A stretch of 63,606 nucleotides of DNA, filler included, from Intoshia linei (Eukaryota > Animalia > Orthonectida), in NCBI GenBank assembly GCA_001642005.1. It is 5 parts of 5 records of this genome, joined end to end, with 100 filler letters (N's around TTAATTAATTAA, not from the genome) between each part and the next. Parts side by side here need not be neighbours in the genome. Positions count along the whole stretch, not along the records: positions 59,557 to 62,378 come from LWCA01002207.1; 4 more parts are not named here. One strand, given 5' to 3'. The notes beneath the pieces were generated by a model that worked only from the letters and a program-made list of their open reading frames with translations, was not told the origin of the DNA and did not search any database. The translations under genes and the position numbers were made by a program. This document shows positions 2,070-63,606 of the stretch, one piece after another (positions within the stretch are counted from its first letter, which is position 1; each line of letters opens with the position of its first letter).

Positions 2070-3104
2070 ATGGTAATTATTATAAAAATTGATTTATGAT
2101 TATGAATAGGACCAGAAAGTAACAAGTAATATTAAAATAGTGTCTTGAATAAAATTTTTAAGCAATCAAAGAAGCTTTTGGGTTATACGATAAAGGTAAT
2201 TACGGAAAGATAAAAACAGAATTACTTGGTCCTTGTTTAAGAACTGCTGGTATAAAATGTTCAACAGGGGAAGTCGTTGACTATATTTCTAGAAACGACA
2301 CAACCAGTAAGGTGTTTGAAACTATATTTTTTTATACCAAATAGAATCAGGCTTCATCACATTCTCACAATTTTCTGAAATAGCAATTCCAATAATATCT
2401 GAGGGTATAACAAACGAATCTGTACTCGAAGCGTTTCAACTTTTCGATGTTAAAAACACTGGAGCAATATCTAAATTTGAATTAAAACATATTATGACAA
2501 ATTTGGGTGATAAATTATCGGAAGATGATGTTCATGAAATGTTGCAGCCCTTTGATACGAATATAAATTATAGAGGTAATAGTTGTGTAACATACAGTGT
2601 TGTTCAATAGATTATAATAATTGCTTTTTACATATTCTGTGGTTACTAATTCACTAATGAGTAGATGAAATTAAATAAAATTTTGAAAATAAGTTATACA
2701 CATATTTAACTTAATTTATCACTCTTAAAGTGTATTTTCATATTAAATACTGATAGACCCTCTTTATATCTTAATCAATATAACATAGTATTCATTTTGA
2801 ACAGAACCACTGTATCTACTTCTGTAAAGATACGCTATCATTAAATTATATTGTTGTCTCGTCGGTGAAATGGTAACTCAATATTTTTTATATATTTTTA
2901 AGTCACAAAATAATGTTGAACTAAAGGAGTGAAATTTTTTACATCGCCCTTATTTATAAGTTCAAATCATTTTACCATCTATGGACTGAATCAAAGATGT
3001 ATCAAATAACACTGTACATGAAAATGTAGGAAGTTATGATATTTCTAATAAATTAATTTAATTATTTAGATCTGATATCCACTCTGTCAAAACAAAGATA
3101 TTAA
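2070..3104 (+). CDS. Calmodulin-like / myosin light chain EF-hand protein
   Basis: ATG|gt at 2070-2072; introns 2073-2109 (37 bp), 2126-2162 (37 bp) and 2307-2344 (38 bp). Spliced product: MDQKVTTIKEAFGLYDKGNYGKIKTELLGPCLRTAG...SGFITFSQF...EAFQLFDVKNTGAISKFELKHIMTNLGDKLSEDDVHEML. The last exon is uncertain (donor 2576; either 3070-3104 or 2611 onward). Confidence 0.85.
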
Positions 3105-3821: not shown

Positions 3822-6800
3822 TTAGTTTAGAACAATTTGTACAACATCTTGGTTGGCCAAAACATGTTTTATTCCAACACGTTGACCCATAAATTTGACG
3901 GAACGACCCCAAACAAGAGCAAATCGGAATCGTTTTGCAAATGTCCTATGAATACAGCCACAAAGAGTTTGTAGTGTTGCTCCGGATCTGGCTATTATTC
4001 CCTCTTCCAAATTTGGCTTCTCACCTTGTTTTCGTGTATAAATGATAATCAACCCTAATTGTCTCCATAAACGATAAAGGAAGTAGTCGATGTTTAACTT
4101 CAAATTACAGCTCAATACAACGTTGTTGCATTGCTTGGCGTAATGATCTAAGTGTTCTATAGAAAGTTGATCGATTTTGTTATAAACATATAAACATGGA
4201 ATATAAACGCAATTATTTTGCAATACATCCACAAATTCTTGAATTCCGTAGTCTTTATTAAAAATAACTTCTGCGTTATATATTTTAGATTCATGTAGAA
4301 TGTTAATAACTTGTGTTTTTGTAATTTTTGTAAGAGGAACCAAAGAACTAACCTTTACGCCGGCAGTAATAGAGGACTTTAAAGGTGTGTATGAAATATT
4401 AGGTTTTTCTTGGTTAAGACGAATACCCATTGTTTCTAATTCATTTTCAATTATATTTTTATGTTTAAGTGCTTTTGTAGCATCCAGCATTATGACTATG
4501 AGATCAGCAGTTCTTGCTACTGATATTACTTGCTTTCCACGACCTTTCCCTGTTGCAGCACCCTCTATGATTCCTGGTAAGTCAAGTAATTGAATGCGTG
4601 CTTGTCGGTATTCTATGATACCCGGTATACAGGTCAAGGTAGTAAATTCATATGATGCTGCTCGTGATTCGGCATTTGTTAATATGTTCATTAAAGTCGA
4701 TTTTCCAACTGAAGGAAACCCTATTAGTGCAACTCGAGCGTCGCCACTTCGTGCAACATCAAATCCATCTCCTTTAGAGCTAGCATTCGCTTCTTTGGTG
4801 TTTATTTCTAACTGGGCTTTATATCTAGATAATTTGGCTCTCAATAAGCCACGATGGTATTCTGTGGCTTTATTTTTTTGCATTCGGCGCATTTCTAAAT
4901 GTTACTTATATTTAGTGTAGACTAGTAAATAAAATTAAAATGTTAGAAATGAATTATACACATCACTCACTTCGAGTAGTTTTATAAAATAAATTAATAA
5001 AAGAACCCTAAATGAGAGATTCGAATGGGGCAGAGGTAAACCAACAACGCTCGATGTACCTAAACAATTTTTAATTAACGATACGTAATGTCACACAACC
5101 ACGCTTACAGTTTAAATTACACCAACAAAATTGTGATGCTATATATTTTGTAATGCTTAATGTGGAAGGGTATGCTCTCTTTTCCAATAATTTCGTCGAG
5201 ACACCGAAGAGGGCATCGGTACGTTAAGTTCATCTCTAGAATGGGGTAATAAAAAATTTGAAGTGCGTTACAAAAAAATCACTGCTCGAATACGCTATCT
5301 AATATTAATTGATACATCTCGACAATATGGAAAAAAAATTCTTATTTGATAACTATACCAGGGCCGGCAAAGTTATCTACACGGACCCCTAGGTGTCCAT
5401 GATAAACATTTGGGGTCTACGCAAAATTTTAAAATAATTAGACATTTTTAGCACATAAAGTCGTTTTTGGTAACTAACATCTGAATCTGGATAATGAAAA
5501 TTTATTTGTTCAATGTTCATCAAAATTAGTCAGGTATTCCAATTTTATAAAAAGACGCGACAATATGAATTTAAAATTATATGCATTAATTTTATTTTAC
5601 AAATTTTTTATAACATTTAACTATGAAAATAAAGTTTAATTTAACTTTTTTGGGAAAAATTTCGATGTTGAGTGGCCGGGTCCAAACTCAACCAATTTGA
5701 ATAATTTTTTCAGGAAAGTGATCACCCTAATATATGATACAGTATAATGCAAAATAAAATTTAGTATAGGTACAATAAAATTTTTTATTTCAATAAGAAA
5801 AATATAATTTAAAATAATCACTAAATTATTTCAAGAAAACTGATTTAATTGCTAATATCAGCATGAAATTTATAGCGATCTGTGATCCCAAAAATGTTCT
5901 ATAAGAATAGACTAATATTATTCTTATTTGTCTGTCGTATAAAATAAGATATTTTTCAATGTTATCTAATAAAAATTTCTTTGCTTTGTCAGAAGTTTAT
6001 TCACTAAACTGAAACTTCTTTCACAGTAATTGAAGTTGACGGAGAATTCCATAGAAAATAATATAATGAGGGAGGTTTTTATTGATCAATATCTAACACA
6101 ATTTTGGTTATGTCGTTGTTATTTAAATCTTTGAAATTTTAAATTTTTAAATAATCTTTTAAATTTAAATCTTAGAGAAATGTATATTATGAATTATGTT
6201 AAACCCCTTTGTGACTGTAAAATTTGACTCTTGCGTCAAATCTATCACATTGATTCAATATTTGTATCAACATAATTGAATTCATTCTTGATGTAAGGCT
6301 GGATTTGACACTGCTTCATTTAATTATTGATTATTAGGTTTGTTCAATGAAATGTCGGCTGATAAAAAGGCCTCCAAGACTGGTACTGCAAAAATCATTA
6401 GACAAATTTACTTAAGTGCAAATATGAACAGTATTCATTTTAGATTTATGCTTAACGAAATTTAAGTTATTGAATTCTTCACGCATTATAAATTCAGCTG
6501 GCTCATAATATGGCTTATAAACTCAGAGATTTTTAGCTGATTATGGAATGCTAATAATAACATAAATTGTATATATTTGAACAATTATTTGTAGAATCGC
6601 ACGTGAATTATAACATCTTTAATACATATATATCTTTAATCATGTATAGCAGGGATGTCCAACATTTTTTTGATGCGATCGACTAATACATTGATTAGAA
6701 AAATGTAGCGGATCGGAACCTATTTCATCAAAATCGCCTTATGGAATCATATAAAAAATGTATAACTAAATATTTTCAGTGTGATCGTAGAAAACATACA

Positions 6801-14128: not shown

Positions 14129-16708
14129 ATGGTAACTATAGAACGCAATAAAAATAGTTGTTTCAGGCCATGTCCGGCACTAGATATAATATTAAATTGA
14201 AAGAACCTAATGACGATTCATATTCAGAGTTTTCATATTTTTATTTGAGTGATTACAAGGTAATTCCATTTTTACTACATATATTTATTGACTAGAATGA
14301 GGATGAACCTAATGGATGTATTGTGATTGATAATATTGACGTTGATTATGCCACAATTGAAAAATTGGTTTTTTATTTAAATTTGATTTACTAACTTAGA
14401 GTTAGAATCAAAAAAACAAAAAACGCAAACTATACGAAGAAGATTTAGTAGATCTTACTGATGGGTACGATATTGACGACCCCTTTATCGATGATACCGA
14501 AGTCGTAATTGGATTTTTTGCAAAAACTTATTTTAATTAGTTTGATGAACAATTACCATATTGGTTGACCACAGATAGAGGAGGATTTTATATAAATAAA
14601 GGAATTTTAAATTTTAAAAGAGTTAATAGAGACGAATCTACACAAATTAATGTTATGCCAGACCTGCAGCTCATCGACAAAGAAAAAAATAAAGTAATAT
14701 TTATTTGTATGTAATTAAATTGTTGTAGATTAAGCAAAAACCAAAAAAAATATGTATTGATGATACCGAATGTGATGATGCTCTTAAAGGTTTTTGAAAT
14801 TGAAATTAAATTAAATTTTAGCTGCAATAGCGTTTGTGAAACCAGAAGACACTGATGTTGTGGAAGTCATGAAAAAATTGCCCGTACTCGTTGTATTTTA
14901 TTAGTGTATCATAATTTTAGATTAGTTATTCAGCAGTCGATACAAAGGAATTGGAGACAGTGATTTTACAGTAATTATAATTGTTAAAATTTAAAATAAG
15001 TCTATGCAAAAATGTTATTTGGTGATCATTAACCTGAAAATTCATACAATTAATTTTTTAAATTCCGTGATTAACTTTTGAATATGATGGAATCATCTCT
15101 TGTGATTGTTGATATTGGGCAGCTGATTATTACATAATTTTTATAAAAAATTAACGTGGCATTGCGCAATGTGCTATAAAATATAAAAGGTCCACAATTC
15201 GAGTCCTTAAAAAACACATTTTATATAATTAAAAGAACTATGTGAAAGTTTTAACTTATCCTATTATGCTACTTGGTTATTCATATTAATTGAAAATATC
15301 ACACTATCTGTCACGCATCAGTAATTTTTTATTTTAAAAATAAGAGAATTAACTATAATCAATTGGATAACCATTGTCAACTTAGTGGTATGAAATAATA
15401 TGGTTGACGGTTGTAAAGTAATAATTTCTTTCAGTTTTTGGTTATAAAAAACGATGATTGAATTTTGAAAAATTTTGTGGGGTAAAAAAATTAATAAATA
15501 CTATTAACAAAATTTTTCCGTCATTTCATATATAATTATTAATTACCTTGCAATGCCCTTATACCTTCTACGTGCCAAACTTTTTAAATATGTATTGCTT
15601 ATCTGGCGTTCACAGTTTTTTTGCGATAGGACTTACTTTTCGAAAAAAATTTCTGTAATCGCCCACTAGTAAAATTATGAAATGTTTTATTAAATAGCAG
15701 GGTTACTACACTTTAAGTGTAATTTATTAATTTTATATTATTTTTAATAGATTGATCAATTATTCTGAAAACTTTGAAGAAAGTGTAAATACTCTGTTTT
15801 GGGCTTGGATAAGTAAATTTTTGCGATCAAAAAAATATTTAATTAATAAAATGTGTATACAAAATGGAGAATCAAAATTGAAAAAGTTGATAAGTTTATT
15901 ACATTGTCAAATTGACAGTCAAATGCCGCTTTCCATTAAAAATTACCAAGAAAATGTGCAAAATTTCAAATCAATGACAATGAAAAACCTTGAAAATTCT
16001 AATGATAAAATTTGTGGTACTTCAATGGTTAGCATTCCTCTGTATAAGCCTAAAATGATATTTGTGTTTACTCCGGAAATTATACTTTTGATGAGGAGAA
16101 TAGTTTCTGAAAAACTATCTCACGTTAAGTATTACTCAATATGTATCAATAATAAGGATGACGCCATTCAATACATTAAGAACTTTTTTAAAGTTAGCAT
16201 CAAGCATCTATGGTCGAAGGGTTGGATATCCGCCACCATATTTTTGAGAAAAGTATCAGTTGTATTTTCAAAGTATTCTAATAAACCTGAAAATAAAATA
16301 AAATTTCATACTGAATCAAAACCAAATCAACGTATTTTACAAACTGGCGTGTCTGACACACAAAGTATTATGGTTGCAACAAATAATGTCGACATAGACC
16401 ATGGATACTCCAAGGAATATCACGATAAATTAAAAACCAATACATTTATGAATTTAGCAAATACAATTCCTACTCCTATTACCAAAATTCCATCTCTCAT
16501 TCAACTATCTCTGGAATCAAATCCAATCTCATCTATCAAAGAAAATTTAGTCAGTACCGTAAATGATATCAATCTCGATAGTATTACGACAAAAAACATT
16601 CAACCAGGCGTAGAAATGTTCTTTGAAAATACAGATCCTGTTATAATATCAGATAACAGTCAAGATGAGGCTAATAACCTCCAATCACAAAGTTTATTTT
16701 CCGGTTAA
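14129..16708 (+). CDS. UBN: Ubinuclein / yemanuclein (HIRA complex H3.3 chaperone subunit)
   Basis: HUN/HRD motif EDLVDLTDGYDIDDPFIDDTEV|FDEQLPYWLTTDRGGFYINKGILNFKR and N-terminal EPNDDSYSEFSY. Multiple mini-introns; the long terminal exon is 15751-16708. Confidence 0.85.
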
Positions 16709-24090: not shown

Positions 24091-25072
24091 GCAAGTTTTT
24101 GTTAAGGAAACGAATAGATATGCAAAACAAAAAAATAGACAAAAATTTAAAACTAATTTATCAGAATTACGAGTAAATGTATTACGATAAAATGATAACT
24201 CAGTTGTAACATTTGCTAGCAACGTTTGTGGTGTAGAACCTATTGGAAAGGTCAAAAGATGGAGTAAAAAATATAATCACGGAATGGATGGCGTTGATAT
24301 ATTTGACAGAGCGGCTTCGGATTATCGACCCTTGATTAGAGCTAAGAAGTGGTATTTCCCCTTAATGATCCATGGCATTAATGCTCTAATGGTTTACGCA
24401 TGGCGTATGTACCAAATGATTCATCAATGTAAAATGCCTCAATTACAATTTCGAAGAAGCGTAGTTCTTGGTGCAATTACTACATCATTTCCTCGCCCAA
24501 TTACAGGGCCTCAGTTAACAGTATCGACTCCATCTCGATTTGATGCAGTCGACCATGTACCTATTAGTATTCAACCAAGAAGGTGTATTCTGTGTAAAAA
24601 GAATTGTCGCATAAAATGCAATAAATGCCAAAAAGCCTTACACATTAATACTTGTTTTCAAAATTATTATTCAGAATTTGAATAATAAAGTTTTATTTTA
24701 ATGCTTTTGACTGTAATAATTTAATTTTGTTAATTACAATTCGTAAAAAGTTAAAATAATCAAATTAATTTGGTCGTTACAAATATTGAATATAAACTTT
24801 TTTAAATAGCTGTTGCTATATTGACACTTAGTCCTATTGGTTAAATTTTAATTCTGAGTCATAATGAATATCAAGATATATATAACTAAAGTCATTAATG
24901 TTTTTTTCCGGTTAGCGGCTAATGACTACATATGTAGTCATTCTCAGTTTACCCAGTTTTAGTATCTCAAACCCTTAGTAATTTTACACATATTTAAATA
25001 TGCATATATAAATAACACATTTCGAAAATTATAATGTTTGACCAAGTATAAAGGGTGTCGGTCACTAATGGG
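24091..25072 (+). mobile_element. piggyBac transposase 3' remnant with right terminus
   Basis: YNHGMDGVDIFD...KKWYFPLM, Cys-rich tail RRCILC...KCNKCQKALHINTCF; ends ...ACTAATGGG|TTAA. Confidence 0.9.
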
Positions 25073-27802: not shown

Positions 27803-29700
27803 TAGAGTGTCCAGATTTTATAAGTACTAAATAAGTACTTTTCGAAATGTCTTAGAAACAAAAAGAACAATAAAATTTGAATTGAAAGTTCTAAAAATTT
27901 GATATTTAAAAAGAATTAACAATTTAAAAAGAATTAACAATTTAAAATATGAAATGTAAATGTTAATTTTATTGGTATTTATCATTGCAAATTATTTTTT
28001 TACATAATTATCTATGATTTTTCAAATGTTTGTAAAAATCAGTACTTTTGTTAAAATAATTACTTATGGACACACTATTTGATATTAAATTTAATTAAAG
28101 CGTCAATTTTTCATAAGTAGAAAATAAGTAGATTTTACTAAGAAACAAAAATAAACTAATCTTTCAAATTGAAACAAATTACATAATTATTACGGATGCA
28201 TATTTTAAAGTTTAATTATATTTATCACCAGAATATCTTATGACACAATTCTGTCATTTAATAATGTTTTATAGAATTCTGTGCAAGTTTCTATACTGTT
28301 TTATCTCAGTAAAATTACAGATTTTAATGTTTTCACATTTAAATTTGTTTTTTGATCAGTCCAATAATTATTGGCCATTGTAAAAATTCCTTCTACATAT
28401 GCATTAGATGAATGTAAAGAGTAATAGAATTGAAATAATTTCTTAAATTCAATATTTTCATAGAACTCTTTCCAAAGCATTATAGATTTCAAGTTTTGAA
28501 TTGAAGATTCAACTAAATTATAAATTATTACAATGATTATAATATATTACTAATCACGAATTTATTGAATATGTCATCACGACATATATGATTTAATTTG
28601 TTGATATCATTATAAATATTTACACATTGTTCTACGTTTGTCCATGTAAAATCAGTTCTATCAATTATATATAATAAAGGAGACAAAAGTGTTACAGAAA
28701 GTGTCCATTTTTTTAAATAATTGAGCAATGCCTCATAAAATCCAATTATTTTAGACTTTAAGAATAATTGTTGGTTATTATTGAATGATAATAAAATTGG
28801 AATAAATTTTGACGGTAAAAAATATGCTTTCATTCGACATTCAACGTTGTCTATTAGAAATGAAATTTTTTTTGCAGCAATTCCGAATTCAACCTAGTTA
28901 AGAATATATTTTATATATATATATAAATAAAATACCTGGTTTCCCTCAACTCTTAAAACACATTTGTGTACTAAACTACCAATATTTTCAAGAAATAATA
29001 TCCAGAAAAAAGAATATTGATTTTCAAAGAATGTTTTTAATTTGATTGATGCATCAGTATGTACAAAATAATGTTTCAATGAATACATCATATATTATTC
29101 TATTCAATGATGGAGCTAATGCTAACCACCGTGTAGCACTGTACCACAACAATGGTTTGTATTCTATTTCTAGATCTTGACATATTTTTTTTAAGATTAA
29201 TGTTCGAGATGTGTATGTATGAAAGTGAAAATAAATATTAATGATAATTTTTTTTAAATCAATTTGTAATAAATTTGACGCATTTTTAATAGCATTATTC
29301 AAAATATGCGCGTTGCACCCAGTTGCAATTAATTTAGCATCAAAAAATTGATTGAGTCTAGATAAAACATTGTTTGTTCCAGCTTGATTGATACCTCCAA
29401 AGTTGCCATTGGTATTATCAGCTGAAATGATACATTTGTATTGAACAACCCAATCATTATTGAAAATATTAGAATATTTTGGCATTTTTATATTGACAAT
29501 AAATGAAAATTTAAATTTAATATAAATATAAAATATCAGTAAATATACAGTTTAAATTGAGCCAATATCATTTTATTATGTAATATTTGGTTAAATATAT
29601 CCATAGTATTTATAATCTACTTATTTTCTACTTATTTTACATGTCAAAAAATAAGTAGTTTTTCAAAAATTAGTAGATATAAACGCTTTAATTTAAATTG
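27803..29700 (-). mobile_element. Degenerate hAT transposase (Blackjack-like)
   Basis: Broken ORFs with ISADNTNGNFGG, GCNAHILNN (CxxH), TRWLAL and SSNAYVEGIF. Terminus-like TAGAGTGTCC at 27803. Confidence 0.8.
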
Positions 29701-47427: not shown

Positions 47428-48007
47428 GATTATTTTTTCGAATGAATCAATGATTTGTGTGATGGGCAACCAATGTAAAAATGTGCGCAGAAGATCATGC
47501 GAATCGTCAAGGCCAGAATGCATCATACAAACAGTAAAATTTTCTAACAAAAGTAATGGTTTTGGGGATATATCTTCTGTGGGAATGGGTGAATTACAGA
47601 TTTGTGAAGGTATAATGAACCAGCATACCTATAAAAATGTATTAAAAAATTTTTTTGATGAAGTGACACAACGGCACATTGATCAGAAGTATATATTCCA
47701 ACATGATTCCGCTCCATGTCACAAAGCCGAATCTGTAACTTCATATTTCCAAAATGAAGGTATTGCCATTCTTGAATGGCCCGGAAATTCCCCAGATATG
47801 AACCCAATCGAAAATTTGTGGGCAAAATTGAAAGAGGAAGTTCATACAATTCCAATAAGATCAAAATCGGAACTGATTATTCGCCTACATACAGTATGGA
47901 ACAATTCTTCTAATTTGAAAAAACTGGCAAAAGACGTATTAATAGTATGCCGCGGAGAGTTATGGCTCTCATACATGCTGAAGGAGGTGTTACAAAATAT
48001 TAATTAA
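47428..48007 (+). mobile_element. Tc1-like DDE transposase remnant
   Basis: IFSNES, FQHDSAPCHKA, WPGNSPDMNPIENLW. Confidence 0.9.
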
Positions 48008-54197: not shown

Positions 54198-56540
54198 TGT
54201 AATCTTTCAAGGACGTTTAGAATAGTAAATAAAGAAATATGTAAAACATAACTTTGTTATACAGATGTTAGTATACAACGTTACACCTCCATTCCAGTAT
54301 ATGTGATGTGTGAGAAAAGAGAAAAAAATTAGAGTGAGATATATGTTTTAAGAATGGAAATAATTAATATCATAATAATGGAATAATTGAAGATTAATCA
54401 GTTGATGAATCATATTTATCATATATATAGTTTTTTTTAGATATGAGGGTGTTATAATTTTACGAGGTGGCCGTCCTGAATTAGTAGGAGTTTGATTAGT
54501 AATATCAGAATTCATAGTTAGTGGTGTATAATAAGATCCATTATTCATATACCAATGTAATGGGTGACCCATTTGATGCGCTCTACGACGTTCACATTCT
54601 TCACGTTTGGTTAAAATTTAACCGTTAAATACTCCATCTATTCTCTATGGGTGGCTGATGATATATCGACTACTGCCAAACCATCTTAAATTCTATCATA
54701 ATTGAGGATGTCTTTAGTTGGCAATTGTACGTTATCCTCAATTAATGAATTATCATAATTGGTTAAATCAACATTTAGAGGTAACTCTAGTGAACAGTTA
54801 TCATGAGGGATATATTGCTGTTTTAATTTTGACGTAACCGGATCATTTCGTTTAAAAAATCGAGAATGAAAGTTAGGTTGTTTTGGTACATGTTTATCAA
54901 AATTTCTTTTAACCCTATTTTGGTATTTAGGTTGGTTTGATTTTGCTGATTGTATAAATCCTTTTCTGGAATTATTTGTTAATATTGAACGAGGGATGAA
55001 TGGCAAGGACAAGGAGCGTCCAAATAATAGTTCTGCAGGTGATTGTTGATTCTTGACAGTAGGTATATTAGGAATATCAGTAAGAATTTTTAATATTTTC
55101 AAATACCAATTATTTTTGTTTTGATTTGTAAGACAGCGAATTTTATCATTTATTGTTCGATTCATTCGCTCTACTTGACCAACACCTTCATGTTGATATG
55201 ATGATGTAAAAGTTTTCTTGATCCCTATAACTCAGCATAGATTTTTTACAATAGCTAAATCAAATTGGGTACCTTGATCGGTGTGAATTTGATTTGGAAC
55301 ACCATACCTTGCGACAATATTATTTAATATGTTATACGCAACATAATCTGCAGTCATTTCTTCAATAGGAAAGATTTCCGGCCAACCAGTAAAATGATCG
55401 ACCATGACCAGGTCTGTATTGTATTTCATAATTATAATTTCCCAAATTTTGAAACCATCTAAATTTCTTGCCAATTAATTTAGAAGAATTTGCTATTGAG
55501 GTAAGAGGATTGTAATCAGTAAGAATGATAAAACGTTTTCCCAGTAAATAATGTTTGAATTTATTAACGGCGTATACGACAGCTAAAGCTTCTCTGTCGA
55601 CTGTGCTCTAGTTGCTTTCTACAGGTATCAATGATCTGCTGGCATATTATACAGGTCTGTTATCTTGCGAAAGAATAGCTCCTATGCCTAACTCGGAAGC
55701 ATCAGTTTCCAACACAAATTGTTAAATATCATCTGCTAAAGCCATGACTGGAGCGGAACAAAGGGCTTCTTTGATAATTTTATAAAAAGTTTCGCATTCA
55801 GAATTCCATTCAAATTTATCTCCTTTTCTCAATAGTTTATATAACGGTTCACCGATTTCCGAAAAATTTTTTATGAAACGTCTATGATAGTTAGTACAAC
55901 CGAGAGATCGTTGTAATTCCTTGACGCTGTTTGGAGTTTTCATTTTCATTATAGCATTAATTTTATCTGGATCAACCCGTATTCCGTTAGTATCAATAAT
56001 GTGTCCTAGGAAATGTATTTGATTTAGGCCAATATGGCATTTACTTGATTTTAATTTTAAACCTTCCTTAGCTTAGCTATCCTTAGCTATCCTTTTAAGA
56101 AGTAATATGAGATGTTTTTTATACTGATTGAGACCTTTTAAAGCAATAATATTATCATCCATATATCCGTGTTCAAATGGTAAACCTTTCAATACACCAT
56201 CCAGCATTCTTTGACAGGTTGCTAGCCCGTTCACTAAACCATATGGCATTACTTTAAATTGAGAAAGTGTTCTACTAGGACCAACAGAAAAAGAAGTTTT
56301 TGTTTTATAATCATTTGAAAAAGGAATTTGCCAGAAACCGGAGCATAAGTCAAAGGTAGAAAAATATTTATGTCCTTTCAAGCTATCAAAGATATGAGTT
56401 GATTTTGAAACAGGATACATGTCTCGTTTAGTGATACCGTTTAATTTATGATAATCAATTCAGAATCTATCTGTACCATCTTTCTTTTTAACTAGAAGAC
56501 ATATATTGGCTACCTCCTTGACTATCTTGTGCTTGTCTTT
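54198..56540 (-). mobile_element. Degenerate Ty3/Gypsy retrotransposon (RT-RNaseH-IN, PPT, short 3' LTR)
   Basis: RT motifs FSTFDLCSGFWQI, MPYGLVN and YMDD; RNase H ETDASE..REALAVV; IN RYGVPNQIHTDQGTQF and SPAELLFGR. Domain order is RT-RH-IN. PPT GGAATGGAGG is followed by TGTAAC(54285)...ATTACA(54198). Confidence 0.92.
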
Positions 56541-57402: not shown

Positions 57403-58870
57403 CTAGCTTGGCTGTTATGTACTTCGTACAAACAGCATCCTAGCTCTGCCGAGAGCGAAATTAGTTAATTCTACCAAAAAAATAAATGCAATAATAAAAT
57501 TTTACTTAAAAATGCTAAATTCGTTATTATCAATCCTTTAAAACAGTGGTTCTCAAGGGGGTCCATGTGGACCCATTAGTGGTCCACAGGAAATGTTTAG
57601 GGGTCAACAAGAAAAATTTGGGGTCCACAGATAAATTTTGGGGCAACGAAAAAAATCCATCACTAGAGTATTTTACAAAACTACGTGACAATTTGAAATT
57701 AATTAAAATAAACAATATCTTCAATAATGAAGTTATCAAGAAAGATGAAGGTTTAAAAGCTTCCTATGAAGTTTCTATAGCAAAAGCTTGTAAACCTCAC
57801 ACATTGGAAAAAACTGTAATTTTACCAGCTATTTCTGTAGCTATTTCGACTTTAATGAATAAAAATCCAACTGAATTTACTGGTCAAATCCCTCTGAGTA
57901 ACTTATCAGTATCAAGACCAGGGGTGTCAATTATGCGGCCCGCATTATAAATTTTTATTTTTTATAACAATTTTTTACACATATTTCTTATTTTACACTT
58001 TTTTTATATATTTTTTATGATTTATTTATTCATTATTACAATTTTAACATTATTTTTACACTTATTTTCCATTTTTATTGTTTCATATTTCATTTTATAA
58101 ATTAAACTTATTATAAATTAATTATTATAAATCTGTGTATTACATATATGTAATTTATAAGAAAAATAATATCGTGAATTAATTTGAGAAAATAGTCATT
58201 TGTTGTATAATCCTTATGATTATTTGATTAACGTTTTCGTTTTCTTACATCAGTGATCGTAATGTGCATTTATATTTTATTTTAACATGCAATCATCAAT
58301 TGAAACGTTAATGATGCCGATGAATTTTCAACCGAGGGTCGCGAAATTTATCAAGGGGTCGTGAGAATTTAAACACCGTATAAAATATAAATAAAACTGA
58401 ATATGCTTTTTTAATATTTTTATTTATGTGAATTGATAAGATGTTTGGAGTATATAGAAAATTTTTGGGTCGCGAAAATTTATTATGTTTATAAGAGGTC
58501 GCGAACACAAAAAGGTTGAAAACTACTGGTCTACACCTTTTTCGATTCAAATTTGCACTCGTTTTATTATATTGTCAAAATTTTAGTTGAAGGGTTAACA
58601 AGAAGTGTACTTTAAAATAGTTGTATAACAACTATTTTCAATCGAAAAAACTATGGTGCAAAATTTTATAAAACAATACAAGCATCGATATATAAGGTAG
58701 CGTACGACTAAGATTTTTTTATAATTAAGGGTCCACGAATAATATAAAATAGCTAAAGGGTCCATGTACTTAAAAAAATTGAGAACCACTGCTTTAAAGG
58801 AATGGTTCATAAACTTATTTCACGTTATCTTTTAATTTAAAGGTAATTATTCTCACTTAATTTTATTTTC
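57403..58870 (-). mobile_element. Helitron fragment interrupted by a nested hAT element
   Basis: Helitron 3' end at 57403-57543 resumes at 58792 (CTTTAAAGGAATGGTTC). Confidence 0.65.
57544..58791 (+). mobile_element. hAT (Buster/SCAND3-like) deletion derivative with nested MITEs
   Basis: TIRs CAGTGGTTCTCAA / TTGAGAACCACTG; TSD CTTTAAAA / CTTTAAAG; remnant ASYEVSIAKACKPHT...QIPLSNLSVSR. Confidence 0.85.
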
Positions 58871-60630
58871 TAATATTGGTGTAAATAATTAATAATAAAC
58901 AATTCCCGATCATACCAATCATTTATATACACTTATATATAATAGCCCGATAAATTATCTACACTATCATACAAGTTTAAATTTAAATAATTGAGTTTAA
59001 TTTTAAATTGTGTAATCTATAAATAAAATTTTTTTCTCGATTTTGTAATTGTATTATTTTAAAAAATATATACGTACAGTGTTGTTCAATAGATTATAAT
59101 AATTGTAAAAATTTTGTATTTATCTTCATATATTTTGTATATTAAAACCTAAATAAAATGTTTGATCTAAATAAGTACTACCGATAAGTATACATCGATT
59201 AAAAATATTGTTGTTTTCAAAATTAATGTACACGTAGTAAGGATGAATTTAAGTGTCTACGCGAAAAATTGCGTATTTAAGAAATATGTATCATAATGAA
59301 GAAATTTTGTAATAATACGATTTATCGACCTGCTAGTTACATATATTTGTTAAATTATAATTCCTAACATCGCTCTCTTTCAGAAATTTAATTTTAAAAT
59401 TTAAAATTTGATAATTTAAAATGGGCAAAAGTAAAGATATTTATTCCCAAACAAAANNNNNNNNNNNNNNNNNNNNNNNNNNNNNNNNNNNNNNNNNNNN
59501 TTAATTAATTAANNNNNNNNNNNNNNNNNNNNNNNNNNNNNNNNNNNNNNNNNNNNAGTTTAAATGTAAATATGAATAAATTATATCTTTTTTATTCTTA
59601 TTGTATAAATGATAATAATTATTATTCCGTTATCGATTACTGTATATCAGTGATTCTCAAATATGGCCGTTTTTATATTTTTCGTGGTCCACCGAATAGT
59701 TTTAATAATTTGAATTTACCGATATTTCAATTAACCTCCAAACTAATTCTCATTAATTGTCAACTACTCTTTTATTAAAATTTTCTATAAATAAAATAAA
59801 AATTGTGGTCCGCAATGGTCCTAAATTATTTTATATTGATAAATCTGGCCCTTCTGAAAAAAGGTTGACAACCCTGCTGTATACATACAAACATATATTG
59901 TTTGGTACATAGCACAACACACTCGGATCAGGGAATATTAATATTTAGACTCAATTAGGTTTTAACATAAAATTTCATCATTATTTAGTATAAAATAATT
60001 CAGGGTAGAATAAAAAATTTCAATGTGGTCGAAATACCGCGATTTTTTTAAAGTACCAGCAAGTGTAGGGAACGAGGTTAATGCTATGCCAAAAAACATA
60101 CAATAACCGATGCAACAATCTATAAAATAATTAATTCTAATTATAGTACATGTAACATTTTTTCGAAGTTAATTAATAAAATCATATTACAAAACAAAAC
60201 AGCATTCAATATTTATGGAAAAGAAGTAAGAGACCAACTAATTACCCTTAAATTATTTCATTGGATAAATCAGAACAATTTCACACCCAGAATGTCATTT
60301 GCGTTAAAGAAAATAATAATTTAAAAATACAAATTCTTATTTCACAAAATTATCTAAATTTAAAATGTAATATGAAGTTTTGATTATCTACAAAATTATG
60401 TATATGTACTTGTAGTAACATGGTTACTCATCAAACTTGTTTGATTGATCAAATTGATTGAAGATTACAAAATACTTATTGTAGATATTTTGTAAATACA
60501 TAGTTAAACATATATCTCATTACATATTATTATAATACAACAATTATAATAATTAAAATTAAAGAGAGAAATAAAAATTTGTAAGATTATATTTGAATTA
60601 ACGACATTTAATATTTGATACATCTACAGA

Positions 60631-62216
60631 ATGAACATTGCAAAAGATGAGAACAAAGCAACAAAAGAAAGAAAAAACTCATGGAAAGGGATAGGAGTAT
60701 CCCAAGAGAATTCCAGCAGGCCGCAGACGCCAGAATGTAGGCACACCTAGATAGATGGATAGTTCCTGCTTACAAGGACCTGAACAAAGAGAGAGTTTTA
60801 GATGAAAGTAGAAGTGTAAATTATATAACTCCATCTCAGGATTCACGAGCAGTGCCCTTCAGTGAGAACTTATATACATAGAAGATTTTACTGGATCTTC
60901 AGTATGTTAATAACGACATTGAAACCCTCAGGAATTTCTTGTACAGCAAGATTGGAACTGGTGAACAAGTTGATCCACTAATCGTGGCAAGTTACATGTA
61001 TGTTTTGGCCAGAATAGACTTTGGAACCTTTCTAGAAGATATCAATTATGTACCATCTGTGTATGCAAAGCTGGAGAATCATCGAGGTTAGAAGACTTCG
61101 TTGAGGTCAAAGATTCTGAACACACTCTAGAGATCCAGTAGACAGCCCTGACGTATCAAAGTTCACCTATTGGATTCTTTTGTATTATCTATCACACCTC
61201 CGAATAAAAAAGGACTCGAATGCTGATCTTGCTATTTACAAAACTCGTACAATGAAAAGGGTAAAAGATATTCTGAGAGTAAGTAACGTCATGTTACCCT
61301 TTGATCAAGTTGACACTCTAAATTCAGGAGACATATCATTGTCAATAATCGCTTCCAATCAGGAAGTGATAACATTGACAGCGATATATGACCTTTTTCT
61401 AGGTCATGCAAACATTGTTTTGCCTATTAAGTCTCTAAGATGGGCGACAGTATGTAAGAGAGGAAAGGACATCATCACGCTAAACCTGTTGACGGACTAC
61501 ATTTCTATGTATGAAAAGAGTATACATTCAAGAGTCATTTCGATGATGTTTACAAACTCCATGATCCAGAATTACAAAAAATGTTCAAATTGAACCCGAA
61601 ACACTACGTATCGATAGGACTAGTGTGGTATCATCGTGCTTTAAACCTGGTCCCGAAATCTGCCTACTCAGCCATTGCTTGCCCAAACTGCTACATGTAT
61701 TTAGCCACTAGATTGTATTTTAAAGGGATCCAGACTTTCGGTGGTACCAGGCTAGATGGAACCTCGTATTATCAAATGATCTTATTAGCCGTGCGAACTT
61801 CCATTTTGGAAACCGCCAACCCAGACAATGATACCCTCAATCTCAATAAAGAAAGCATGGATAAATTCAAAAAGCTTGCGGACTGCATGAACATTCACAA
61901 TGAAGAAATGTTTACCCTAATCTCATTGCGAGTATCACTATATGCTGGTGATCTCTTGTTTGAAGCAAAGGACTTGGCATTCTTAAGGTTACATGTAAGA
62001 AGGAGCCTCAAAGAGAGGGTACTCTTAGAGAATTCCTTCACAGGATAGCCTTTGACACAGAGAATAAAAAATCGGCCAGTTCCTTGGAGATATTTGAAGG
62101 AGGTGACTAAAGACGTTATGAAGAAAATGCAGGACTGTATAAAAGTAAAAGATGAAGCAAGACTAAAAAAAGAAAAGGAGAATCCTATACGACAAAAACC
62201 CATTGAAACAAAATGA
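60631..62216 (+). pseudogene. Endogenous viral element: rhabdovirus-like nucleoprotein (N), near full length, with stops and frameshifts
   Basis: Intronless island visibly richer in GC than its flanks. Ordered motifs AIYDLFL, LRWATVCKRGKD, WYHRALNLVPKSAYSAIACP and IRQKPIE parallel rhabdovirus N motifs (VSV AAVDMFF, FRYGTIVSRFKD, YLIDFGLSSKSPYSSVKNP, LREKTIG; recalled from knowledge, not searched). Confidence 0.78.
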
Positions 62217-62378
62217 GACCACTACTCAGGTTGGGTCAAATGAGAACCTTTACCTAATATTGATGCTATGTCGGTTTCTAATAGTATTATAAAAAACATA
62301 ATATCTAGATATGGAAGTCCATCACAAATTCAAATGGATTGTGGTAAACAATTCCAAAATAGTGTTATAAAAAACCTA
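62217..62378 (+). mobile_element. Gypsy integrase core fragment abutting the viral N sequence
   Basis: DHYSGWVK*EPLPNIDAMSVSNSIIKNIISRYGSPSQIQMDCGKQFQNSVIKNL, clearly homologous to DHFTGWPEIFPI...IVARYGVPNQIHTDQGTQF at 55232-55474. Confidence 0.85.
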
Positions 62379-62809
62379 NNNNNNNNNNNNNNNNNNNNNN
62401 NNNNNNNNNNNNNNNNNNNNNNTTAATTAATTAANNNNNNNNNNNNNNNNNNNNNNNNNNNNNNNNNNNNNNNNNNNNTAATTGAAATGAACTAATTTCG
62501 ATTTTTTTATTAATTTTTAAATAAAATTATTTTTTATATTTGTATCTTTATCATTTGGATTCCTTTTCATTCCATGCATTCATACATAACCAATGACCAT
62601 ATGAGCTTTTATTCAAAATATTGGTCAAAGTGGACGTTTTTTATGTGCGATTCGACATACAATTTTAAACTTAGTTTGTGTATAACAAAATATTTTTTTA
62701 TAAATTGGTACCACCAAACTACTTTACAAAGGTTTTATCAAAATGGTTCTATCCTTTAGATTTTATGATAAATTTAAACGGTTGACACAGCATTTAGTGG
62801 TCTCAATGA

Positions 62810-62991: not shown

Positions 62992-63247
62992 TTTATTATA
63001 ATATAAAATAATGAATAGTTTATTTAAATAAGATATATTACGAAAAAAATATTATAATAACGAAACACTTGGAATATGTAAATTAAAATTATATTAACAA
63101 CCCTCACAATAATTTGGTNTTTATTATAATATAAAATAGAGAATAGTTCATTTAAATAAGATATAATTACGAAAAAAATATTATAATAACGAAACACTTG
63201 GAATATGTAAATTAAAATTATATTGGCAACCCTCACAATAATTTGGT
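62992..63247. repeat. Tandem duplication of about 127 bp separated by a single N (likely assembly overlap)
   Basis: Two near-identical copies either side of N at 63119. Confidence 0.7.
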
Positions 63248-63606
63248 AACAAATATAATATTCAAATTTCCTTTTAAAATCTGTCATAAAATTACTCTTA
63301 TAAATGGTCATATCTGCTTAATTATATGCAATTTATATATGCATTGAATAAAATTTAAATATAATTATTGAAAAATGTGCAATTAAGAATTTTATCATGA
63401 AAAAAAATTTCCCGAATATATTGTGAAACATTAATTTAACTATTGCTTCTAAAAAATGACTTAAAAATTATTTTAACAAAAAATATCTAATAAATTTTAT
63501 TATATTATGGAATCTTTGTATTGACTATATTCATTGCAAACATGACTTTATAATTGCAAACATGATTAACAAGATCGTGAATGTCTTGTATTTGAATAAA
63601 TTTATT

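Follow-up and report, generated by a model that had tools for sequence, protein, structure and literature searches.

A decayed rhabdovirus nucleoprotein gene in order between Gypsy sequences in the orthonectid Intoshia linei

How does the gene of an RNA virus come to lie, in order and on one strand, between parts of an LTR retrotransposon? The question is raised by an Intoshia linei contig (positions 59557-62378, 2,822 bases) of the window, by which we mean the whole stretch of 63,606 nucleotides that was analysed, where a nucleoprotein (N) gene of rhabdovirus type runs into a fragment of Gypsy integrase. A preliminary description had seen a virus-retrotransposon chimera here and placed it among the endogenised viruses of arthropods; that framing falls away, the host being an orthonectid. 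Capture of RNA-virus genes by LTR retrotransposons has mostly been inferred from neighbourhood statistics in mosquitoes, and a viral gene lying in order between LTR and integrase core in a genome nearly free of LINEs makes a cleaner test case. The contig is flanked by two of the window's four identical spacers, each of which consists of 44 N letters, a 12-base linker with stops in all frames and another 44 N letters, and is not biological. The order of contigs across spacers is a scaffold inference only. Features and their coordinates are collected in the table.

Its homologies identify the viral part as a rhabdovirus N gene, decayed but nearly full-length, that extends from 60631 to about 62216. 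A database gene model, P0001, maps to 60631-62213 by splicing around the breaks, and sibling copies from elsewhere in the genome tile 60687 to about 62107 at 37-72% identity in successive frames. Along this copy the reading frame changes at least five times, and there are two internal stops. P0001 itself matched the Pfam family Rhabdo_ncap (PF00945) at 18.5 bits (E 0.001), under the cut-off of 26, while its sibling P0003, to which it is related at E 1.4e-91, matched at 35.9 bits (E 5.2e-9), over that cut-off; the family assignment is thus reached through the sibling and not through the window's own P0001. Against the PDB, P0003 gave 5 matches only, all of them nucleocapsid chains (E 0.008-0.04), which from entry codes and sequence we take to be vesicular stomatitis virus N. 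Single-frame pieces of the window gave no N match in Pfam or PDB, and profiles of the alignments A1 and A2 returned nothing useful from the PDB. The AlphaFold model of P0001 (pLDDT 42, pTM 0.28) was too poor for fold comparison; Atlas matches to TPR/HEAT-like proteins were set aside as noise from a poor model (pTM 0.20). Position 60631 is likely the native N start, judging by a sibling that opens with similar residues when compared by eye. No other viral gene, L included, adjoins N at the locus, and a motif scan with the consensus given in the available part of PMC4334499 found no rhabdovirus start or end signals at the N ends. The marks of an endogenous viral element (EVE) are present: N is contiguous with host repeats and an LTR in DNA-type runs, it carries stops and frame changes, and its siblings lie on contigs of up to 49 kb.

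At the joint a single frame on the + strand reads ...IRQKPIETK, the stop TGA at 62214-62216, DHYSGWVK and, past another stop (62241-62243), EPLPN...VIKNL, after which the gap opens at 62379. Re-reading bore out the earlier statement that N sequence meets Gypsy integrase directly at this TGA, on the same strand and with zero spacer, and also that the integrase piece is without its N-terminus, its match being confined to positions 31-82 of the 102 of rve. The accompanying statement that the two run in frame is literally correct as to shared frame and strand, but it carries no meaning, since a stop stands at the joint and N has already changed frame at least five times. A shared frame is expected by chance in 1 of 3 cases given the same strand, and the alignment of sibling copies has N in another frame at about 62000-62107. 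The last ~35 codons before the TGA show only a weak link to N (local score p 0.20, anchored score p 0.043), and the true breakpoint could therefore lie some way upstream of 62216. The TGA overlaps the Met position of the integrase M-x-D-H motif, and instead of being the native stop of N it may be a by-product of the joint or a later small loss. With an AG at the boundary, the joint might have arisen by splicing, but this idea is unsupported.

To look at the joint in a second assembly, we compared the window with Logan contigs from three public runs, X1, X2 and X3, all of one sample. An X1 contig of 2,274 bases spans 60411-62378 and an X2 contig of 379 bases spans 62010-62378, both crossing the joint unbroken with neither joint mark nor loose end at 62216 and with the same TGA; they extend past 62378 by 2 and 13 letters. 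The joint is thus bridged in 2 of 3 runs from one sample. X3 contigs reach neither N nor the joint, and a 39-base X3 match with 7 differences at 62141-62179 was taken as chance. Over 60411-62378 the Logan contigs differ from the window at 9 sites and by one 3-base gap in 1,968 bases (0.5%), and X1 and X2 are identical to each other wherever both cover the locus. These differences, together with a differing flank at the LTR start, point to either a second allele or a second, near-identical copy. It may be that the assembly was built from these very runs, and the contigs count as a second assembly, not as a second sample. That the joint is an artefact at a contig end is a reading that might be drawn from its distance of 162 bases from the gap, from the 9 sites, the 3-base gap and the flanks that differ at 60411, and from the possible common origin of the reads. 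Contigs of two runs made by another assembler nevertheless cross it with those 162 bases on the short side; a misassembly near 62216, the check proposed earlier, is unlikely, and we give an artefact very little credence.

A frame with few stops across the joint invites a reading as a functional N-integrase fusion or a domesticated N gene, as 61515-62378 holds one frame with 3 stops in 288 codons where the other two have 20 and 24. The frame changes and two internal stops of N, the stop at the joint, the missing N-terminal part of the integrase and a database gene model that exists only by splicing round the breaks make this reading scarcely credible. We regard the locus as a pseudogene from which no fusion protein is expected.

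The integrase part is a 54-codon piece that matches Pfam rve at 18.5 bits (E 0.0025), a partial match below the cut-off of 32.6, and matches the other Gypsy integrase of the window at 43% over 54 residues (E 2e-13, within the window). It is a Gypsy-type integrase core despite the sub-threshold score. None of the three frames upstream of its D resembles the residues that precede the same motif in the window's other integrase. The interval 62070-62213 was tried as a remnant of the integrase zinc finger and rejected; Pfam gave it no support, and the neighbouring Gypsy is itself without that part. No intact or donor copy of the piece at 80% or more was present in the Logan contigs of these runs, where X1 and X2 each gave 1 contig and both were this locus, and a protein search for a donor yielded 0 of 12 candidates. 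The other Gypsy, on the opposite strand, belongs to a different family (43% at the amino-acid level). Its RNase H end runs straight into the integrase core at rve position 27, with the N-terminus lost, which places its break within ~4 codons of the N-integrase joint (rve 27 vs 31) in an element without virus. This near-coincidence would reflect either a hot spot for RT jumps or ordinary deletion or chance.

Upstream of N, contigs from X1 and X2 part from the window sequence precisely at 60411, the first base of a TG in the window. The letters preceding this point in the contigs translate by eye as K-D-Y-I-x-N-stop and continue into a 9-base purine-rich tract. The Gypsy at the window start ends alike, with K-D-Y-N-T-E-T-stop, a purine tract and TG, and the window's second LTR has a near-identical purine tract ahead of its TG. 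We place a Gypsy LTR start at 60411 because this boundary of pol end and purine tract resembles those of the window's two other LTRs: the LTR starts with TG, and a polypurine tract stands before it in family copies. The likeness of the LTR sequence to the two others is not above shuffles (p 0.24-0.96), and the LTR call therefore rests on the boundary evidence only. The LTR start lies 220 bases upstream of the N start codon in the same sense. The best terminal inverted match (8/10) would set the LTR end at 60500, about 130 bases before the start codon. The intervening AT-rich stretch may be the 3' part of the LTR, the leader of the element or a viral 5' UTR. After the 5 candidate LTR ends no clear PBS was seen, perhaps because it decayed or disappeared at the joint, and no TSD follows any of them. 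The host repeat that breaks off at the LTR start shows many short contigs and loose ends at 59905, 59999, 60344 and 60390, with a contig depth of 378 on 60344-60390, and its continuation is absent from the window downstream of the LTR. A solo LTR was rejected, a TSD missing at 5 of 5 ends and the host repeat not resuming in the window. In the 22 bases at 60583-60604, ahead of N, we noted by eye a resemblance to the pol-end letters that precede the LTR in contigs of X1 and X2; they are possibly a remnant of the end of a related element. Two further Gypsy 3' ends, each with a very short LTR, lie at 1-457 (127 bases) and at 54285-54198 (~88 bases), and both LTRs end in a 7-base motif that is also present at 60463-60469.

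Table. Position of the viral gene, the Gypsy sequences and other features along the window.
Feature	Position	Strand	Remark
Spacers (4, identical)	23991, 49958, 59457, 62379 (last 62379-62478)		100 bases each
EF-hand protein, host gene	2320-2610		same scaffold as the next two
DRG-type GTPase, host gene	3822-4901		same scaffold
Ubinuclein-like host gene	15731-16708		same scaffold
DNA-transposon remnants	47429-48007, 24191-24685, 28537-29551, 57519-57950		plus repeats at ~21.6k, 33.0k, 37.5k, 44.0k, 51.4k, 57.4k
Second decayed Gypsy (RT-RNase H-integrase)	56459-54686	-	break near 55406-55411
Copy of host high-copy interspersed repeat	59905-60410	.	cut at LTR start; limits approximate
Gypsy LTR	60411-60500	+	5' end exact (TG); 3' end candidates 60469, 60500, 60524, 60606, 60628
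AT-rich spacer, LTR to N start codon	60501-60630	+	GC 0.12-0.22 vs N 0.385
Decayed rhabdovirus N gene, homology-anchored part	60631-62107	+	anchored by P0001, siblings, Pfam
C-terminal tail of N (probable)	62108-62216	+	ends TGA 62214-62216; weak likeness to P0002 tail
Gypsy integrase core fragment, rve 31-82	62217-62378	+	one internal stop; runs into gap

Elsewhere in the window, TE remnants on both strands lie amid ordinary host genes, among them the DRG-type GTPase, which with its TGS domain forms a single 359-codon frame. The DNA-transposon remnants include Tc1-type DDE_3; other pieces, to which Pfam gave no match, we take by motif to be piggyBac-like or hAT-like. A MITE-like family is dispersed in both orientations. 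At the start of the contig that follows the N contig, two 96-base direct copies (63037-63261) are 93% alike and 129 apart. Repeats detected within the window cover 6.4%, a lower bound.

We found relatives of P0001 only in I. linei itself, as six database proteins from five additional contigs of 6,765 (two proteins), 49,425, 6,462, 1,633 and 24,950 bases, and the N-bearing contigs of I. linei number six with this locus included. Searches gave no relative outside the species: hits were 2 of 771 candidates, 6 among 1.84 billion representatives and, with a profile, 6 of 7,997, all from I. linei. Apart from P0003, the other five sibling proteins had no Rhabdo_ncap match. In their core pieces the siblings are ~55-70% identical and still readable, which suggests, as far as such comparison goes, that a diverse virus lineage was captured several times and that the copies did not come from a single insertion by neutral decay. 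Their gene models vary in build. That of P0003, on the 49,425-base contig, holds the C-terminal half of N and then the N-terminal half, which indicates tandem copies or a permuted insertion. P0006, on the 24,950-base contig, has N-terminal and C-terminal N pieces around ~300 unrelated residues, a middle part that may be gag-like and for which a whole-protein Pfam scan gave no such match. P0002 is interleaved with a part that is tyrosine-recombinase-like by its database name. Several annotated I. linei "genes" are viral pseudogenes.

Read along one strand, the locus consists of an LTR, ~130 bases, N and the integrase core fragment, so that N occupies the place of gag, protease, RT, RNase H and the integrase N-terminus. 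The best reading, and in our judgement a moderately probable one, is that N was captured from mRNA by a Gypsy reverse transcriptase. During minus-strand synthesis, RT would copy the 3' LTR and polypurine tract of the element, enter the integrase core, switch onto the 3' end of an N mRNA near its stop, copy this to its 5' end and return to the leader of the element; N would in this way replace everything from gag to the integrase N-terminus. An intact helper element would supply the enzymes, and the product, LTR - N - integrase half, would be integrated without coding for any enzyme of its own and would now be a pseudogene. Template switching with helper-supplied enzymes is established for retroelements in general. 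Of the chimera proposed earlier, the joined state of the parts holds, with the joint bridged and an LTR of the same sense 220 bases upstream; template switching at the joint, its proposed cause, is plausible. That N extends from its likely start codon into its C-terminal region, with no second viral gene beside it, is what an mRNA template would lead one to expect. Since 1.31% of the I. linei genome consists of LTR elements and 0.02% of LINEs (PMC7943196 supplement 1), an LTR element would be nearly the only local source of RT. That same share of 1.31% makes Gypsy at both N ends unlikely by chance; the naive probability of such flanks, 0.013 x 0.013 x 1/4, is an underestimate, as TEs occur in clusters and unclassified repeats account for 30% of the genome.

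The main weakness of the capture reading lies in the order of the one X1 contig, which runs pol end, purine tract, LTR, N, integrase. This order fits two near-identical LTRs round N that collapsed in assembly, or tandem units, and the 0.5% differences and two flanks would fit two copies; it fits equally an upstream element whose 3' LTR abuts N. Coming after a pol end, the LTR is formally a 3' LTR in this contig, and PBS and TSD were not found. Also against capture, the second Gypsy, which is free of virus, lacks its integrase N-terminus from almost the same point, and plain deletion can therefore make such joints. That the LTR and the integrase piece belong to one family is putative, and the 3' end of the element falls in the gap. 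These same facts lend themselves to an account in which an N cDNA, probably still made by the RT of an LTR element, was inserted by repair or ectopic recombination at a place rich in TEs, Gypsies inserted beside it independently, and a later deletion fused N to integrase, so that the joint would record decay and not capture. We hold this to be possible though on the whole unlikely. The virus-free deletion ending at almost the same integrase position and the LTR that has a pol end upstream and lacks a PBS suit it, as do sibling models interleaved with unrelated sequence (the tyrosine-recombinase-like part of P0002, the long insert of P0006), and ectopic recombination is discussed for Aedes EVEs in the available part of PMC5497376. 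It sits poorly with Gypsy at both ends on one strand in a genome of 1.3% LTR content and with an N near complete from its start codon; the absence of a TSD after the candidate LTR ends and of a resuming host repeat argues against a solo LTR or an independent insertion.

A further reading is a non-autonomous Gypsy in which a whole N gene replaces gag-pol (LTR - N - integrase half - purine tract - LTR), recopied after the capture as tandem or dispersed units, its joint marking a hot spot for RT jumps that would also lie behind the deletion in the neighbour. Such an element, which we consider rather improbable, would preserve both template switches in full as a fossil, and would give the first evidence that Orthonectida have been infected repeatedly by a deep lineage of rhabdoviruses not otherwise known. 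For the preferred reading, capture from mRNA, the layout would become a clean record of the event if the gap closes on a matching LTR.

It had further been proposed that the locus serves as a small-RNA memory of the virus, with antisense transcription in a piRNA cluster guiding PIWI against live virus, an idea that is compatible with either origin. I. linei has 3 PAZ-PIWI proteins, of a subfamily that is not given, 1 Dicer and no RdRP (PMC7943196 supplement 15). In the dog whelk a probable rhabdovirus N EVE yields antisense 5'U 28-nt RNAs, according to the available part of PMC6085071, and six N-bearing contigs in I. linei suggest repeated exposure. Against this, the TE remnants of the window lie on both strands among host genes, unlike a one-strand cluster; the N contig is 2.8 kb long, and its neighbours are separate contigs joined by spacers; a repeat content of 42% is the genome-wide background (41.8%, PMC7943196 supplement 1); Tudor genes are strongly reduced in Orthonectida, as the available part of PMC12147562 has it; and protein searches found no living relative of the virus. 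The window holds nothing that marks the locus as a piRNA cluster. The memory idea is unsupported here, and we consider it doubtful.

In the literature we searched, mostly non-subscription, no report of endogenous viral, nucleoprotein or rhabdovirus sequence in Intoshia was found, and the available parts of PMC11097642 and PMC13524379 hold nothing on the N locus. The mechanism itself is not new, being known from mosquitoes; as far as we found, it is the host group, Orthonectida, that is newly added, and rhabdovirus-like viruses and their fossils are extended to it. An earlier hint of RNA-virus sequence in this genome comes from the proteome of I. linei, in which a viral RdRP gene was recorded (PMC6396948, available in part); as described there the gene is of an unnamed family and comes without N and without a junction, unlike the present locus, and 7 supplements of published work gave no accession for it.

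From a comparative point of view the closest systems are those of mosquitoes, taken here from the available parts of the papers. In Aedes cells, rhabdovirus EVEs derive mostly from N and G and adjoin Ty3/gypsy elements, with 543 of 614 nearest LTR elements on the strand of the EVE (bioRxiv 10.1101/127498). The I. linei locus shares with these EVEs of Aag2 (Aedes aegypti) the origin from N, the Ty3/gypsy neighbour, the common strand and the proposed copy-choice with viral mRNA (10.1101/127498), and differs from them in its orthonectid host, in an N that abuts Gypsy parts at both ends in gene order, and in a window where a one-strand cluster is not seen. The NIRVS of Aedes aegypti and Ae. albopictus are likewise LTR-associated integrations for which template switching has been proposed; they map to piRNA clusters and make piRNAs (PMC5497376). 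One Aedes bunyavirus EVE is embedded in a full-length Pao-Bel element, where in I. linei the element is Gypsy and the cargo a rhabdovirus N (PMC5497376). The dog whelk, a mollusc, offers an N-only, rhabdovirus-like EVE in a spiralian host, with 5'U small RNAs and, in the part of PMC6085071 available, no description of a retrotransposon junction. This EVE is absent from the relatives of the I. linei N found in protein searches. Env genes, too, have been captured by LTR elements, in further cases beyond the one compared here. Like the capture of env by Ty3/gypsy and BEL/Pao, as presented in the available part of PMC13524379, the I. linei locus joins an LTR element to a gene from an unrelated virus; env captures carry an intact fusion protein beside gag-pol, while the cargo in I. 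linei is a broken N that takes the place of gag-pol.
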